DNA from: Candidatus Tayloriibacteriota bacterium
GTDB lineage: Bacteria > Patescibacteriota > Minisyncoccia > Phycocordibacterales > PALSA-1337
Direction: 5' to 3'
Length of the DNA stretch: 64,000 nucleotides
Assembly (NCBI GenBank): GCA_037129895.1
Contig: JBAXUB010000002.1
Coordinates: forward strand, 463 to 64,462
Shown: piece after piece, positions 3,527 to 60,942 of the stretch
Position numbering within the stretch: the stretch's first letter is position 1
Layout: each line of letters opens with the position of its first letter
Notes under the pieces: model-generated
What the model saw: only the letters and a program-made list of their open reading frames with translations
Databases searched by the model: none
What the model was told of the DNA's origin: nothing
Made by a program: the position numbers and the translations under genes

Positions 3527-5224
3527 CTATAATTTTTTTGGTTCTATTTTTTGATTGCTCTTAACATCATTCAAAAATATCTTTGAGCTGTGGACATTTC
3601 CACTGTAATAATACGACAATGAATTTTCCTCGAAATTATAGACCATGTTCTTTTTCAAAAATTGATCCAAAATCTCTCGTCCTTGTTTCTCGAGTAAATC
3701 TTTTTTTCCTTCTGGTAATGACTCTGCATCATAAAATTCCTGTTTAAAACCTTGATACAATTTTGGAAATGCTTCGGCTAATTTTGAAAAAACAGGAATA
3801 TGCAAATCCTCTGCTTGTGCTTCATTCTGTTTTTCAGAAAACGCATAGAAACCAAACATATAAAAATAGACTAAAATCATTGCTGGAAAATAGCCTTTGT
3901 AATTTGGCATATGTCCATTTTTTCCATCACCAAGAATTTTTTCTTTTAGCTTTTCTACAAAAGCATTATAAGCAACATTATTCTCAACTGGGTTTTCCTG
4001 CATCTCGAGAAAGTGATCATACAGCTGATGTACTTTCAACCTAAATATCTCCTCATTCTCAATCTTGTATTTACTGATAGAATTATGAAAAAGATTATAC
4101 AAAAACTTACCTGTATTTTTTCTCACATGTTCGCTTTTATCTCTAGTTTTTACACCCCAAGTGTAATACCACGAAAAGCTCTCTACCTTATCTATAATCG
4201 CTTCAAGTTGCTTTTGTTCGTAGCATGATTCTATAAAATCACCGATTTCTTTAAAGAAGATTTCAATCAGCTTATCGTTGAGTTCGTAGTTTTTTTGGTA
4301 GTGATCTTTCAAGCTCACATGATTATTCTTTTCGTATACCAACTTAAAGTATCTGGTAACAAGAGCGATGTAATTCAACTGACCTACACTGTCTAGTCGA
4401 CTAAATCTATATTCTCCAAACATAACTCGCAATAATGAACCATCTTTTTCTTTTATCATTACGTCATCAAGGCAAAAAAGGGCATTCGGATAGATTTTTT
4501 GTCCGATAAACATATTCAAAAATGACTCGCTATTCTCTAGTGATTTCGTTATGAGTCGCTTTAGAAAAAACTCTATGTGATCTAAGACATGTTTGCCCTC
4601 TTTTCTTTTTTCTACATAAAAATCTACCGTGCGACCAAAAACAAAATAGGATTCTGAGAAATGCTTTAAGAGAATGTCACTTGCAAAATCGTTCCGAAAA
4701 ATATTTTGTACATCTTTATTTTCCAAAGATAGACTAAGTAGGTTGTCGAATAAATCTATACAACCCCGAATTGTTTGAGGGTTATCCAAATGTGAATTAG
4801 ACAATGTCCCAGCTAGAATGTTTTGTAGAATAGGAATCTGTTTTTTATTAAGTCGCTTCAGTGGAATAAAGATTAAATACAAATACATCAATACTGAGAT
4901 AAACATTAAAACAGCACCGGTAAATTCAAAAATAAATGGGCATCCAAGAAAAAGACCGTCGAGTTCGCCGAAAAACGCCAAAATAATACTAGTGATAGCA
5001 ATCCACAAAGCAACCCTTCTCATTCTGTAATTTAAACGAAATCTTAACTCGCTTTTGTTTGATATAAACTCAATAAAAGCCACCACAATTGACATTGCGG
5101 TGATTGCTACACCTAAATTGTATGAGGAATGGGTTTTCCAAATTGGACTGCCTAAAATAACATTGATTGTAGTATCAAACCAACTCACTAGTCCTCCCAA
5201 AAATTGATAAAAGATTTCATGCAT
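3527..5224 (-). CDS. Membrane protein (565 aa): four N-terminal TM helices plus a roughly 440-aa cytoplasmic domain of unknown function. Last gene of the defence operon.
   Basis: Hydrophobic N-terminus in the translation. Start lies 3 nt after the stop of the DUF262/HNH gene. Confidence 0.6.
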   Translation of the reverse strand: MHEIFYQFLGGLVSWFDTTINVILGSPIWKTHSSYNLGVAITAMSIVVAFIEFISNKSELRFRLNYRMRRVALWIAITSIILAFFGELDGLFLGCPFIFEFTGAVLMFISVLMYLYLIFIPLKRLNKKQIPILQNILAGTLSNSHLDNPQTIRGCIDLFDNLLSLSLENKDVQNIFRNDFASDILLKHFSESYFVFGRTVDFYVEKRKEGKHVLDHIEFFLKRLITKSLENSESFLNMFIGQKIYPNALFCLDDVMIKEKDGSLLRVMFGEYRFSRLDSVGQLNYIALVTRYFKLVYEKNNHVSLKDHYQKNYELNDKLIEIFFKEIGDFIESCYEQKQLEAIIDKVESFSWYYTWGVKTRDKSEHVRKNTGKFLYNLFHNSISKYKIENEEIFRLKVHQLYDHFLEMQENPVENNVAYNAFVEKLKEKILGDGKNGHMPNYKGYFPAMILVYFYMFGFYAFSEKQNEAQAEDLHIPVFSKLAEAFPKLYQGFKQEFYDAESLPEGKKDLLEKQGREILDQFLKKNMVYNFEENSLSYYYSGNVHSSKIFLNDVKSNQKIEPKKL

Positions 5225-56604: not shown

Positions 56605-57645
56605 CTACAACGAAAAATCCTTCAGTGAATATAGATCCTGATTGTCTTCTTTCTCAACATCAGCGGGTGCCCGATCATCCACCAGATCTGAAACTGCTGA
56701 CTGACTCTCTGCAATGACCGCAGTTTCTCCGACATTTATATTATTCCCTTCTTGATCCTTACTTCCTCCTCCATTACCGACTAAGCCCACTTCCTTCACA
56801 GCAACTCCTCTCTCCGTATTCGCCAGTTTTTCGAGCAATACACGTAGATCATCTGGACTAAAGAAGTCGATCACGACAGTCCCACCTTCCTTTACCCTTT
56901 CAATCCTCACGCGCGTCCCGAGTGTTTCTGTAAAAGTTTTCTCCATCTCGATCATGGCAGGATCCAGATATTTCCCCTTATTACGTATCTTTTCAGTTGC
57001 TACACGTCGTGACAATGATTCCGCTTCACGAACTGTTAGCTTCTTGGTCATTATCTCCTTGAATAGTACCAACTGTTCTTCGGGTCTATCAGTAAGCATG
57101 AGTAATGGCCTCGTATGACCTTCGGAGATCTTGCCATCCTGAAGCGCCGTGATCATCTCGTCCGGCAAACTTAAAATGCGTAATGAATTAGAGACATACT
57201 CACGGCTCTTGCCGACTTTTTCAGCAACCTGAGATTGCTTGAGTTTGAATTCCTTTACGAGTCTATCGAATGATCTGGCGCGATCTACAGCATTCAAGTC
57301 TTCTCTTTGTAGATTTTCAATAATAGCCATCTCAAGTTTGACCTGTGCGTCCTCCTCACCATTTCTGATAAGTGCTGGGACTTGCTGCAACCCTGCCAAC
57401 TTGGAGGCGCGCAAACGTCGCTCACCGGAGATGAGCTCATATTCTACTGTCATACCAGCACCTTCGTGATATACCTCTTTTCTAGTTACAACCAACGGCT
57501 GCAGCACTCCATACATCCTTATGGACTCAGACAAATCTTTTAGTTTTACCTGATCAAACTCCTGCCTTGGCTGATATGGGTTTGGATGTATCTTTTCCAC
57601 CTCTATCCAGAAGATGGCGTTATTCACATACGAATTCTGATGCAT
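56605..57645 (-). CDS. parB: ParB/Spo0J partition protein with an acidic C-terminal extension. No adjacent parA.
   Basis: LISGERRLRASKLAGL motif and HTH. Confidence 0.85.
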   Translation of the reverse strand: MHQNSYVNNAIFWIEVEKIHPNPYQPRQEFDQVKLKDLSESIRMYGVLQPLVVTRKEVYHEGAGMTVEYELISGERRLRASKLAGLQQVPALIRNGEEDAQVKLEMAIIENLQREDLNAVDRARSFDRLVKEFKLKQSQVAEKVGKSREYVSNSLRILSLPDEMITALQDGKISEGHTRPLLMLTDRPEEQLVLFKEIMTKKLTVREAESLSRRVATEKIRNKGKYLDPAMIEMEKTFTETLGTRVRIERVKEGGTVVIDFFSPDDLRVLLEKLANTERGVAVKEVGLVGNGGGSKDQEGNNINVGETAVIAESQSAVSDLVDDRAPADVEKEDNQDLYSLKDFSL

Positions 57646-57912
57646 AGTGCTATAATTATAGCAGATTCTAGTAGTCTATGGAAACAAATGAAGTACCAAT
57701 GTTCCATGTGAACGGTTCGACGAATACGCTCCAGAAGAAAAACAAGAGATCAAATGGAATCAGATCTACGATACGGAAGCCAACACTCCACACTAGCCAA
57801 TCCGTCTTCGGAAATCCGCATTTTGCGTCTGAGACGATCTCGATCTGGAAAGGCTCAAAAAACAGTGAACACCATAATCCGTCTCATGAATAGATGAAAA
57901 CGGCTCAATATC

Positions 57913-57941
57913 GCCGGCAGCTCCAATACTGCCGGCTTTTG
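57913..57941 (+). terminator. Terminator: GCCGGCAG...CTGCCGGC followed by TTTT.
   Basis: Seen directly in sequence. Confidence 0.6.
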
Positions 57942-58332
57942 TATTGCATTTATTTTGAGGATTGTATATGATAATCGGGAACAGAATTGATCTTTGAACG
58001 TTAACCACAAGTAGTCCGCGGACCGACACGACTACAACCGGTTGACTAGAAGCAGGGTTAAATACTATTCAGTATGCCAAACACGGTTACTGATCCATAT
58101 GATAATTCATACCATATGCCCCTGCCAGACTCATAGCTAAGGTGGATCAACCAATAAATGTCAGACCAGACAGATGCTGAACGAGTCTCTGACTACCGAA
58201 GCTTTTGTCACATCTCTTTACGCTGCACTTTCGCAGCGCGCAGAAGAGCCGATCCGGCCCTCGCATCTCCATGCATTCGGATCATAGTCTGCTATAGCAG
58301 TATGTGAGGTAGAAGATCTCTTTTGTTCTCAA

Positions 58333-58366
58333 CCCGGCCGCCTCAGTGGTAGCCGGGCTTTTTTTA
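58333..58366 (+). terminator. Terminator: CCCGGC...GCCGGG followed by CTTTTTTT, closing a roughly 400-nt ORF-free interval.
   Basis: Seen directly in sequence. Confidence 0.6.
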
Positions 58367-58424
58367 TTCAATGATATATTCCATAGTTGATTTTAGTTAA
58401 ATTTCAAGTAGACTATAGGTATAC

Positions 58425-58508
58425 GCCGAAGTGGTGAAATTGGCATACACGTAGCACTCAAAATGCTATGAGCGCAAGCTCGTGTGGGTTCAAGTCCCAC
58501 CTTCGGCA
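58425..58508 (+). tRNA. tRNA-Leu (anticodon CAA), type II with a long variable arm.
   Basis: Manual fold: acceptor GCCGAAG/CUUCGGC, anticodon loop CUCAAAA, variable stem GAGC/GCUC, T-loop UUCAAGU. Confidence 0.85.
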
Positions 58509-58509
58509 C

Positions 58510-59133
58510 ATGATAATTAGTAGATACAAAACCAGTGGGGTGAAATTTTTTGATTGGACCAATCTGATGGCTTATGCAGTTGGTCTAATTACAACAGATG
58601 GCTGTCTATACTCTGACCGGAGACATATTTCATTGACATCAAAAGACTTGGAACAAATTATTAACATTAGATCAGCCCTCCGTATTTATCCGAAAATCGG
58701 TATTAATAAAAATATTTATGGTGCAACATATAGGGTTCAATTCAGTAATGTACTCCTATATGATTGGCTTATATCGATTGGTTTGACTGCAAACAAATCA
58801 TTATCTATAGGGCCACTATCTATACCCAATAAGTACTTTGGGGATTTTCTCAGAGGCCATCTCGATGGTGATGGTTCAATAACAACATACGAGGAGACTT
58901 ACACACAAAAAAATGGAGGCATAAATGTTTATAACAGGCTTTCTGTAAGATTCATTTCAGCTAGTCAAACGCATATACAGTGGTTACAATCAAAAGTAAT
59001 TGAAATATTCCATGTAGCTGGCCGACTACACAAGACTAAATCGAACAAAATTGGAAATTCAATGTATATATTGAAATTTGGCAAAATCGACTCTCTTGAG
59101 CTATTATCCAAGATATACTACTCAAATGAATAA
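58510..59133 (+). CDS. LAGLIDADG homing endonuclease (two motifs: GLITTDGC and GHLDGDGS). Starts 1 nt after the tRNA-Leu 3' end.
   Basis: Both dodecapeptide motifs are present. The N-terminal extension in the track (from 58468) overlaps the tRNA and is rejected. Confidence 0.75.
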   Translation: MIISRYKTSGVKFFDWTNLMAYAVGLITTDGCLYSDRRHISLTSKDLEQIINIRSALRIYPKIGINKNIYGATYRVQFSNVLLYDWLISIGLTANKSLSIGPLSIPNKYFGDFLRGHLDGDGSITTYEETYTQKNGGINVYNRLSVRFISASQTHIQWLQSKVIEIFHVAGRLHKTKSNKIGNSMYILKFGKIDSLELLSKIYYSNE

Positions 59134-60100
59134 AATCCCCCTCCTCGTAATCCTCGGGCCTACAGCCACGGGCAAAAGTGATCTTGCTGTCAATATCGCA
59201 TTCCATGTCAAAGAACTGAGCCATGGTTTCTACACCGGAGCTGAAATTATTTCTGCTGACTCACGACAAGTTTACAAAGGACTAGATATTGGAACAGGAA
59301 AAATCACGAAATTAGAAATGAAAGGTGTAAAGCATCATCTACTCGATGTGTGTAGTCCTAGAAAAATTTTTGATGTCATACAATTCAAGAAGTTTACAGA
59401 AAATGCGATCAGCAAAATTTCCGAGAACGGCAAACTACCGATCATATGTGGCGGTACTGGATTCTACATAGATGCCGTTGTAAATAATATCAACTTTACG
59501 AATGTACAAGCTGATCAGAAATTGCGCGAAAAGCTCTCAGAGCTACGACCGACGAGATTGCTTTCTATGTTACAAAAACTCGATCCAGTCCGTGCTGCGA
59601 AATTGAATACATCGGATAGCAAGAACCCTGTTAGACTCATTCGAGCTATAGAGATTGCCAAAGGCTTATCAAAATATAACAGAAAGGTGGCAGCATTAGC
59701 GGCAGTACCAACAACCACAGCACAGGCAAAGGAATATGAACCAATATACATTGGATTACAACTCGACCGAGAGACGCTCACAAAGCGCATAGCCAATAGA
59801 TTGATGAAAAGGATCGATAACGGAATGATCGAGGAAGCGATCAATCTCCACAAACCAATGAAAGCCGGAGGTGTGAATCTGTCTTGGAAGAGAATGGAAG
59901 CACTCGGACTTGAATACAGATATTTGGCCCGTCTATTACAAAACAAAATTTCAAAAGAAGAAATGATAACAAAACTCAATACAGAGATAAACCGATATGC
60001 AAAGAGACAAATGACATGGTTCAAGAGAAATGAAGCAATACACTGGTTCAAACCTGGACAGGATGATGAAATTCTAAAATTTTTAAGGACCCGAATATAG
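59126..60100 (+). CDS. miaA: tRNA dimethylallyltransferase.
   Basis: LLVILGPTATGKSDLAV P-loop. Start taken at MNKIPLL, overlapping the homing endonuclease gene by 8 nt. Confidence 0.85.
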   Translation: MNKIPLLVILGPTATGKSDLAVNIAFHVKELSHGFYTGAEIISADSRQVYKGLDIGTGKITKLEMKGVKHHLLDVCSPRKIFDVIQFKKFTENAISKISENGKLPIICGGTGFYIDAVVNNINFTNVQADQKLREKLSELRPTRLLSMLQKLDPVRAAKLNTSDSKNPVRLIRAIEIAKGLSKYNRKVAALAAVPTTTAQAKEYEPIYIGLQLDRETLTKRIANRLMKRIDNGMIEEAINLHKPMKAGGVNLSWKRMEALGLEYRYLARLLQNKISKEEMITKLNTEINRYAKRQMTWFKRNEAIHWFKPGQDDEILKFLRTRI

Positions 60101-60201
60101 AGCCCCATATATATTGACATAAATGCCATTTAGATGTATAGTGTCTCCAGATCCGATCAAAAAGGATACAAAATAGTGATCGGGAAATGGGAGTTTGACA
60201 T

Positions 60202-60942
60202 ATGACAACAAAGATGACAAAAAAGATTGTAACGATGTCTGGATCGTGGAGCGTTTCCGCGACGACAACAGCAAAGAAAGACCAGTGGGAGCTGGCTCGG
60301 TTCTACCTCAGTGACTTCGATTTTATGACCTGCAACATGCGAGGTCATAACGGAATCACGAGGCCAGATGGCTTGTCCCTCAAGGACTACGAGGAAGATC
60401 TCGTGGACTTTCTCAAGGTTACCGGACCTTCACACCTCATGGCCCATTCTATGGGTGGTGTGGTGGCTCAGGCTGTAACGAATCGCGTACCGGGACTCGT
60501 AAAGAGTCTCGTACTCATTGCCAGCGCTCCACCAGGAGTTAAGACCATTGCTGGCACGAAGATCAACTACAGATTCCTGCGACCATCCTACATCCGCGCA
60601 TTTTGTAGCGGAGAGGCATACAGCCTGAAACCAGCTGACCAGGTATTCCTGCGTGGGAATAGCTGTACCGATATCGCGCTTGGTCCGGAATCAGGGCTCG
60701 CTTCTCGGGAAATTCTTTTCCGTAAGTACCCTGTTCGACCGATCAACACCTGCCCCGTATTGGTGATCGCGTCCGGCCGAGACCAATTACTCTCGATGCA
60801 GAGCCAGCGCGACATGTGCTGCTATCATGGCGGCGACTTCGTCAATATTCGAGACGCACAACACATGGTCCACTGCGACCAAGAGAACTGTTCAGAGCTG
60901 TTTAGCGAGATCAATCGCTGGCTCCGCAGTTTCAAAAGTTAA
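60202..60942 (+). CDS. Alpha/beta hydrolase, GC-rich.
   Basis: AHSMGG nucleophile elbow. A terminator follows at 60978-61012. Confidence 0.6.
   Translation: MTTKMTKKIVTMSGSWSVSATTTAKKDQWELARFYLSDFDFMTCNMRGHNGITRPDGLSLKDYEEDLVDFLKVTGPSHLMAHSMGGVVAQAVTNRVPGLVKSLVLIASAPPGVKTIAGTKINYRFLRPSYIRAFCSGEAYSLKPADQVFLRGNSCTDIALGPESGLASREILFRKYPVRPINTCPVLVIASGRDQLLSMQSQRDMCCYHGGDFVNIRDAQHMVHCDQENCSELFSEINRWLRSFKS

Follow-up and report, generated by a model that had tools for sequence, protein, structure and literature searches.

The locus

In a 64,000-nucleotide stretch of DNA from Candidatus Tayloriibacteriota bacterium (GTDB lineage Bacteria; Patescibacteriota; Minisyncoccia; Phycocordibacterales; PALSA-1337), an open reading frame (ORF) of the LAGLIDADG family lies between a gene for tRNA-Leu(CAA) and miaA. 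The bacterium is an ultrasmall one. The stretch (GenBank assembly GCA_037129895.1, contig JBAXUB010000002.1, positions 463 to 64,462 of the forward strand) is called the window below, and positions are counted from its first nucleotide. Loci in other genomes are cited as L001 and so on, proteins as P0001 and so on.

Genes and RNAs in the window were called with ARAGORN and Rfam for tRNA and with Pfam for proteins (Table 1). The first ATG after the tRNA, at 58510, comes 0-1 nt beyond the tRNA end, according to whether the end is set by ARAGORN or by Rfam. On the other side, the ORF stop at 59133 lies inside miaA, whose ATG is at 59126, an overlap of 8 nt. A first-pass annotation made from the sequence had given the same overlap, had begun the ORF 1 nt after the tRNA, and had judged the tRNA and miaA to be intact. 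Intact they are: the tRNA is complete by both programs (58.5 bits by Rfam, with CCA not encoded), and miaA matches Pfam IPPT at 1.2e-63.

The gene caller starts the ORF at the second ATG, 58567 (P0001, 188 aa). I take 58510 as the true start because the 19 N-terminal residues can be aligned with those of homologues and W16, among them, is nearly invariant.

The ORF is free-standing, not intron-encoded. It lies outside the tRNA, which is uninterrupted, and it has no intein context. Neither a group I intron (Intron_gpI) nor any Rfam family except tRNA was found in 57000-60500 at E<=1, and there was no Rfam match in 57640-58430, upstream of the tRNA, at E<=10.

Table 1. Features of the parB-miaA region of the window
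Feature	Position	Strand	Basis	Remarks
parB	56605..57645	-	Pfam ParB_N, HTH_ParB, ParB_C	native 5' flank, divergent
Promoter-like TTGATT-N16-TAGACT	58387..58414	+	alignment	native, ends 10 nt 5' of tRNA
tRNA-Leu(CAA)	58425..58508 (Rfam) / 58425-58509 (ARAGORN)	+	Rfam, ARAGORN	complete, foreign-type allele
LAGLIDADG ORF	58510..59133	+		207 aa, monomeric two-domain, C-terminally shortened relative to family
LAGLIDADG motif 1, AYAVGLITTDG	58570..58602	+	alignment	catalytic Asp30, invariant
LAGLIDADG motif 2, FLRGHLDGDG	58846..58875	+	alignment	catalytic Asp121, invariant
57-nt deletion junction relative to L001	59119..59133	+	blastn break	ORF end fused to miaA start
miaA (tRNA dimethylallyltransferase)	59126..60100	+	Pfam IPPT 1.2e-63	native 3' flank

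The endonuclease family

Motifs, Pfam score and fold all place the window ORF in the LAGLIDADG family, as its first reading had it. It scores 27.1 bits against LAGLIDADG_3 (cut-off 22.5), and no NCBIfam family matches it. Two motifs are carried on a single chain, each ending in a catalytic aspartate, and both D30 and D121 are invariant in alignments of 23 and 29 sequences. The AlphaFold 2 model of the protein, built with 23 homologues, has a mean confidence (predicted local distance difference test, pLDDT) of 89.2 and displays the doubled alpha-beta-beta-alpha-beta-beta-alpha topology. Its best neighbour in the PDB by Foldseek is I-Tsp061I (E 1.1e-10), followed by I-DmoI, both compact monomeric enzymes. 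Intein endonuclease domains and I-OnuI-type enzymes come next, and I-SceI, WhiA and the bI3 maturase are also among the matches. A search of the PDB by sequence yields I-CreI only, and weakly (E 0.006). The chain is 207-226 aa long in the family, with no helix-turn-helix (HTH) or other domain added, as judged by Pfam and the model. An enzyme built in this way would be expected to make site-specific double-strand cuts in a long DNA target.

The family is large. There are more than 550 homologues of about 220 aa, most of them labelled Patescibacteria, and a profile search collects 326 clusters at 50% identity with E<=1e-30. The labels of the metagenome-assembled genomes that carry relatives also include Omnitrophota, Rokuibacteriota, Anaerolineales, Planctomycetia and 'Deltaproteobacteria'. 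No relative was found among the viral contigs of IMG/VR, and a phage vector was rejected on that ground.

Gene callers extend P0032, P0083 and many of the profile matches upstream through the tRNA gene; in these the match begins at about residue 60, and the 40-60 aa in front are spurious.

The constant partner is tRNA-Leu

A scan of GTDB, one genome per species, found at least 554 confirmed relatives, and the best 80 loci were examined. At 67 of them tRNA-Leu(CAA) stands directly 5' of the ORF on the same strand. Ten others have the mirror arrangement, in which the ORF ends between -36 and +27 nt from the start of tRNA-Leu(GAG), (CAG) or (CAA). Of the remainder, two are cut by a contig end and one has its tRNA 970 nt away. 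The specificity is therefore for a site at a tRNA-Leu gene. From tRNA to ATG the median distance is 7 nt, and 50 of 64 loci have 13 nt or less, too little to accommodate a Shine-Dalgarno site.

It would be natural to look to miaA as a functional partner, and that idea was rejected: only some 15 of the 80 loci have miaA after the ORF, and all of these are in the window's own subclade. The constant partner of the ORF is tRNA-Leu, not miaA.

Some loci have details of their own. In the mirror loci L039 (4593-4627), L066 (4625-4660) and L063 (4616-4630), the ORF runs into the downstream tRNA-Leu(GAG) and takes its stop from it: the anticodon loop provides a TGA (cTTGAGg), or the D-loop a TAA. In L067, L082, L045 and L028, mostly Omnitrophota, a stretch of 25-121 nt that includes a terminator-like hairpin separates the ORF from the tRNA; L067 has a GGGAGG Shine-Dalgarno site as well, and this copy appears to have acquired expression signals of its own.

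Empty sites

If the ORF were an old part of this locus, relatives should have it in the same place. Metagenomes were scanned with the neighbouring ParB as anchor, giving 71 loci with 51-93% ParB identity. About 58 of the 71 have tRNA-Leu(CAA) beside parB, and one of the 71 has the ORF (L096, which is L002). About ten are clean empty sites, where 1-25 nt separate the tRNA from the start of miaA, as in ggcacACATG and ggcacAATG. Comparison of this junction among relatives had been suggested at the outset, and it reveals a polymorphism of presence and absence, as expected of a free-standing insertion. In the ParB tree the occupied loci (the window with L001, L002, L003, L010 and L013) are scattered among empty ones at 80-94% ParB identity.

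Other things are found in the space between tRNA and miaA in relatives: a Gp49-like/HTH_3 pair resembling a toxin-antitoxin system (L110), a GNAT acetyltransferase (L098), a 3-dehydroquinate synthase (L089) and an ORF like 5-enolpyruvylshikimate-3-phosphate synthase (L105). The 3' flank of the tRNA appears to be a general hot spot for insertion. In 22 loci the tRNA and miaA are more than 120 nt apart; of these, searched for remnants of the endonuclease, L103 alone has one, and the rest hold unrelated genes.

The tRNA allele goes with the ORF

The tRNA itself differs between occupied and empty loci. Empty loci of the window's clade share one near-invariant allele of tRNA-Leu(CAA), and the occupied loci have quite different alleles. 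The window and its sister L084, which lacks the ORF, have ParB about 85% identical but tRNAs only 64% identical (54 of 85 columns); the tRNAs of the occupied loci L001, L003 and L032 are 100%, 95% and 91% identical to the window's. With ParB identity of at least 80%, the median tRNA identity is 93% for pairs of empty loci (n=91) and 63% for pairs of an occupied and an empty locus (n=18).

How far does the exchanged tract extend? The promoter-like pair TTGATT/TAGACT in front of the tRNA is kept in occupied and empty relatives alike, its TTGA and TAGACT columns invariant, and window positions 58385-58415 are 87% identical to L084. Since occupied and empty loci share the pair, the replaced tract appears to begin at the tRNA. 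The pair is a putative promoter; a scan with generic sigma-70 and terminator patterns was uninformative, giving no more matches than shuffled sequence. At the other end, L002 loses homology with the empty loci L095, L104 and L105 across the tRNA and the ORF only and regains it at miaA. That miaA was replaced along with the cassette was considered and rejected, since the miaA DNA of L002 is 74-78% identical to that of its empty neighbours, comparable to parB.

The first-pass annotation saw an intergenic insertion between tRNA and miaA. The insertion stands, but the tRNA is no bystander to it, being linked to the ORF and apparently exchanged together with it, and miaA is the gene that follows in one subclade only.

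Fragments of displaced tRNA genes

If a replacement tRNA came in with the ORF, something of the old one might be left on the far side. In 7 of the 62 loci with the tRNA upstream, a second, partial tRNA-Leu is found at the ORF stop or overlapping it. All seven are 3' pieces that start at tRNA position 25-54 and run to the 3' end, and each differs in sequence from the intact tRNA upstream. They are detected by nhmmer with E values from 6e-14 to 5e-4, and their local-alignment scores are 44-82, where none of 118 controls exceeds 37. In control regions every nhmmer match at E<=4e-3 falls on an annotated complete tRNA gene, and two weak ones (E 0.4-0.9) fall elsewhere.

The mirror loci present the mirror image: 6 of the 10 have a 5' piece of tRNA, covering positions of about 11-40 and ending just past the anticodon loop, 10-30 nt before the ATG of the ORF (shuffle p<=0.01). 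The displaced fragments indicate that the ORF sits inside an old tRNA-Leu gene, with an intact copy supplied on one side.

Decay and selection

Some members of the family are falling apart. L103 (reverse strand, about 3724-3852) retains a 40-aa LAGLIDADG stub with motif 1, MNIINTNTAYIIGVAIGDGNLSNSNGRAVRLRVTCDNKYE, between tRNA-Leu and miaA, directly after a tRNA of the type found at occupied loci. The N-terminus is missing in L018, L020 and L071, and the start codon in L056, L070 and L079.

The window copy has lost its end. Relative to L001 it has a clean deletion of 57 nt (blastn breaks at window 59124/59123 and L001 6558/6618), which removes the last 19 aa, ILCLKRKRNIYEQFLKYTK in L001. Two residues of this tail, L192 and K195, are invariant and a third, R194, is almost invariant; the tail forms a confident C-terminal helix in the model of a full-length homologue, P0002 (pLDDT about 96), and it is absent from just 3 of 79 ORFs of the family. 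The remainder of the gene is intact. The window copy may be at an early stage of decay and is perhaps inactive.

Between the window and L001 the ratio of nonsynonymous to synonymous substitution (dN/dS) is 0.11 for the ORF, at a dS of about 1.25, as compared with 0.09 for miaA and 0.10 for a neighbouring hydrolase. The endonuclease tree has taxonomic structure and follows taxonomy broadly, and endonuclease and ParB distances are moderately correlated (Spearman 0.46). From the low dN/dS and this correlation it follows that the ORF has persisted vertically for a long time under purifying selection. Such persistence is consistent with repeated homing within a group of related lineages, and also with a role that benefits the host or with domestication.

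A model for the cassette

I propose that the ORF and its tRNA form a homing cassette: a free-standing endonuclease gene that enters tRNA-Leu genes and supplies a new tRNA in place of the old, in the manner of the mobile ORFs (mORFs) of fungal mitochondria. The observations above make this a probable account.

The cassette would work as follows. The enzyme would make a double-strand break in a tRNA-Leu gene that lacks the endonuclease, probably in the region of the anticodon stem and variable arm. Repair from the occupied allele would copy in the ORF together with the replacement tRNA, whole or in part. The cell would keep a working tRNA-Leu, one that presumably can no longer be cut, and the displaced piece of the old tRNA would stay beside the ORF and decay.

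Expression would be borrowed from the tRNA. Because the ORF seems to have no leader or Shine-Dalgarno site of its own and starts right after the tRNA, 0-13 nt away in most loci, it is probably transcribed from the tRNA promoter. The 5' end of its mRNA would be made by 3' processing of the tRNA, and the message would then be translated. The same mode of expression apparently serves miaA at empty sites.

In the lineage of the window, the cassette would have taken the place of the tRNA-Leu(CAA) that stood between parB and miaA, of which no remnant is left. Later the copy would have lost its C-terminal helix through the 57-nt deletion, after which it may have been inactive.

A bolder version of the model makes of the cassette a selfish element of the 'cleave-and-rescue' kind. 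Its nuclease would destroy the resident tRNA-Leu gene and bring in a resistant replacement, a whole tRNA or part of one. Carried by DNA uptake and recombination into Patescibacteria, Omnitrophota and other lineages, the element would drive rapid turnover of tRNA-Leu alleles, and it would be expressed from a leaderless mRNA made by tRNA 3' processing. It would then extend the mORF type for the first time beyond organelles and to a hybrid gene that encodes an RNA. Taken as a whole, this version is tentative, with a chance that I put at slightly less than even.

Objections and alternatives

Several observations weigh against the cassette model. Long purifying selection is not obviously expected of a purely selfish, fixed element. 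The occupied and the empty loci were drawn from differently selected samples. Similarity of the endonuclease is overall uncorrelated with similarity of the tRNA (Spearman 0.11); as regards co-conversion of the flanks, the linkage of tRNA allele to ORF presence speaks for it and this lack of correlation against. It was tempting to think that the T-arms of tRNAs fall universally into two classes, occupied and empty, and that idea breaks down beyond the window's clade. No tRNA fragment is present in the window or its miaA-linked subclade (the window's score, 24, is at background level), and in this subclade the ORF stop overlaps the start of miaA. An intact tRNA and a divergent partial copy on the two sides of the ORF are thus a property of the family (7 of 62 loci in the first arrangement, 6 of 10 in the mirror one), not of the window. 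Finally, the target site is placed only by the points at which the tRNA fragments start or stop, and these points vary (tRNA positions 25-54).

The most serious alternative is that this is a domesticated LAGLIDADG protein, inherited vertically, often lost and immobile, with a host function tied to tRNA-Leu or MiaA, perhaps as a DNA- or RNA-binding regulator or chaperone comparable to WhiA or the intron maturases. The first-pass annotation had left the choice between a homing site and a domesticated endonuclease open. A dN/dS close to that of miaA over so long a distance speaks for domestication, as do an endonuclease tree that keeps broadly to taxonomy and the correlation of endonuclease and ParB distances. 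WhiA and the bI3 maturase are among the structural matches, and the ORF stop overlaps the miaA start, as ATGA or TAATG, in L001, L003, L010 and L013. It is hard to reconcile such a role, however, with an ORF present in one of 71 ParB-anchored loci when some 58 of them have the tRNA, or with a linkage to miaA limited to one subclade. Both catalytic aspartates are invariant across the family and no HTH or other domain has been added. WhiA, for its part, is marked by loss of the catalytic acids, gain of an HTH and universal vertical presence, none of which is seen here. Foreign tRNA alleles, displaced tRNA fragments and stubs point to insertion and would not be expected of an old host gene. I consider domestication unlikely, and of the two possibilities first offered the homing cassette is the one favoured.

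A second alternative is that the locus is an islet of the integrase type, with tRNA-Leu as attachment site, the partial tRNAs as attL and attR, and the LAGLIDADG protein as passive cargo. Elements that integrate into tRNA genes are classically flanked by a whole tRNA at one end and part of one at the other, a layout seen in part of the family, and the tRNA-miaA junction does hold other cargo in relatives. But the insert, about 0.7 kb, consists of the LAGLIDADG ORF alone, no integrase is nearby, the partial copy diverges from the intact tRNA instead of repeating it directly, and the family has no relatives in viral contigs. This makes an integrase islet very improbable.

Least credible of all is that the ORF belongs to an overlooked intron or intein, where most LAGLIDADG genes reside, or arose by chance: a structured RNA of 390 nt does lie upstream, but it is absent from every other occupied locus except L001, the Rfam scans (57000-60500 at E<=1, 57640-58430 at E<=10) found no family besides tRNA, the tRNA is complete with the ORF outside it, and more than 550 homologues and a model of pLDDT 89 exclude a chance ORF.

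RNA upstream of the tRNA and expression of miaA

The spacer of 779 nt between parB and the tRNA (57646-58424) contains a candidate structured RNA of about 390 nt at 57977-58366 on the + strand. It has a long closing helix followed by a terminator-like hairpin, CCCGGCCGCCTCAGTGGTAGCCGGGC, and a run of T. Its minimum free energy is -131.9 kcal/mol (z = -4.9 relative to 100 shuffles), and it matches no Rfam family in the scans at E<=1 and E<=10. L001 has long, almost identical blocks of it and no other locus has it; in the sister L084 the spacer at this place is only about 140 nt. A second hairpin resembling an intrinsic terminator, GCCGGCAGCTCCAATACTGCCGGC followed by TTTT, at 57913-57936 (+), is conserved in L001 and suggests that another short transcript may lie between parB and the candidate RNA.

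At the empty junctions of L084, L091, L095, L100, L102 and L113, miaA begins 1-25 nt after tRNA-Leu(CAA), with no space for a ribosome-binding site. Such junctions suggest expression punctuated by tRNA and without leaders in these bacteria. The tRNA-Leu(CAA) here has A36-A37-A38 in its anticodon loop, the motif of MiaA substrates, and tRNA-Trp(CCA), which should be a substrate as well, is often near miaA.

Comparison with known systems

Free-standing homing endonucleases are well known from phages and organelles. In anatomy the cassette is closest to the mORFs of fungal mitochondria, and in mode of action it would resemble the intronless homing of T4 seg genes. mORFs have been described in atp6 of Allomyces macrogynus and in atp6, atp9, cox2 and nad3 of Glomus sp. 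(PMC3630166, citing Paquin et al. 1994). There, too, a free-standing LAGLIDADG (or GIY-YIG) ORF is inserted in a gene (PMC3630166), a foreign gene end restores function, the native end is left behind the ORF as a remnant, and the imported end is more divergent than the host's relatives would predict. In contrast, the present family is found in bacterial chromosomes instead of mitochondrial DNA, its hybrid gene is a tRNA gene and not a protein gene, it occurs in both orientations (replacing the 3' or the 5' part), and the window copy has no remnant.

SegB and the other seg and mob products of phage T4 are free-standing homing endonucleases responsible for 'intronless homing' (PMC2330249, PMC2988022). 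SegB, like the present ORF, is encoded among tRNA genes, and seg enzymes secure the inheritance of their own gene and of flanking tRNA DNA by cutting the genome that lacks them, the flanks being co-converted; the present family would act in a comparable way. SegB, however, is a GIY-YIG enzyme of a phage and acts during co-infection, whereas this family is of the LAGLIDADG type, resides in cellular chromosomes, is absent from viral contigs and is accompanied by partial duplication of the target gene.

LAGLIDADG enzymes of the candidate phyla radiation (CPR) have been reported in insertion sequences of rRNA genes and in group I introns, with no mention of tRNA (PMC11270868). With these and with the archaeal rRNA-intron enzymes I-Tsp061I and I-DmoI, the family has in common its host phylum, the compact monomeric two-domain fold and a highly conserved RNA gene as the actual or, here, predicted target. 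The rRNA enzymes differ in being encoded within the rRNA gene, in an intervening sequence that is excised from the transcript; the present locus has no intron, and a replacement copy of the tRNA would preserve function. The group I intron in tRNA-Leu(UAA) of cyanobacteria and plastids is a self-splicing ribozyme, usually without an ORF. It is likewise a selfish element that interrupts tRNA-Leu near the anticodon loop, but no ribozyme was detected here, and the isoacceptors are CAA, GAG or CAG.

Significance

The literature searched gave no description of a tRNA-Leu-linked LAGLIDADG family in the chromosomes of cellular bacteria, nor of the mORF design, known from fungal mitochondria, in any bacterial chromosome. 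The family is represented by at least 554 species-level occurrences and is tied to one tRNA species. For annotation, it is to be noted that gene callers misplace the starts of these ORFs or extend them through the tRNA, and that the tRNA fragments left behind might pass for pseudogenes of unclear origin.

If the model is true, it would explain why tRNA-Leu alleles are anomalously replaced between close relatives, and the family would be a set of natural nucleases aimed at a conserved RNA gene. Mitochondrial mORFs and synthetic cleave-and-rescue drives would have a counterpart in bacteria, and the placement of the cassette would point to tRNA-punctuated, leaderless expression in Patescibacteria.

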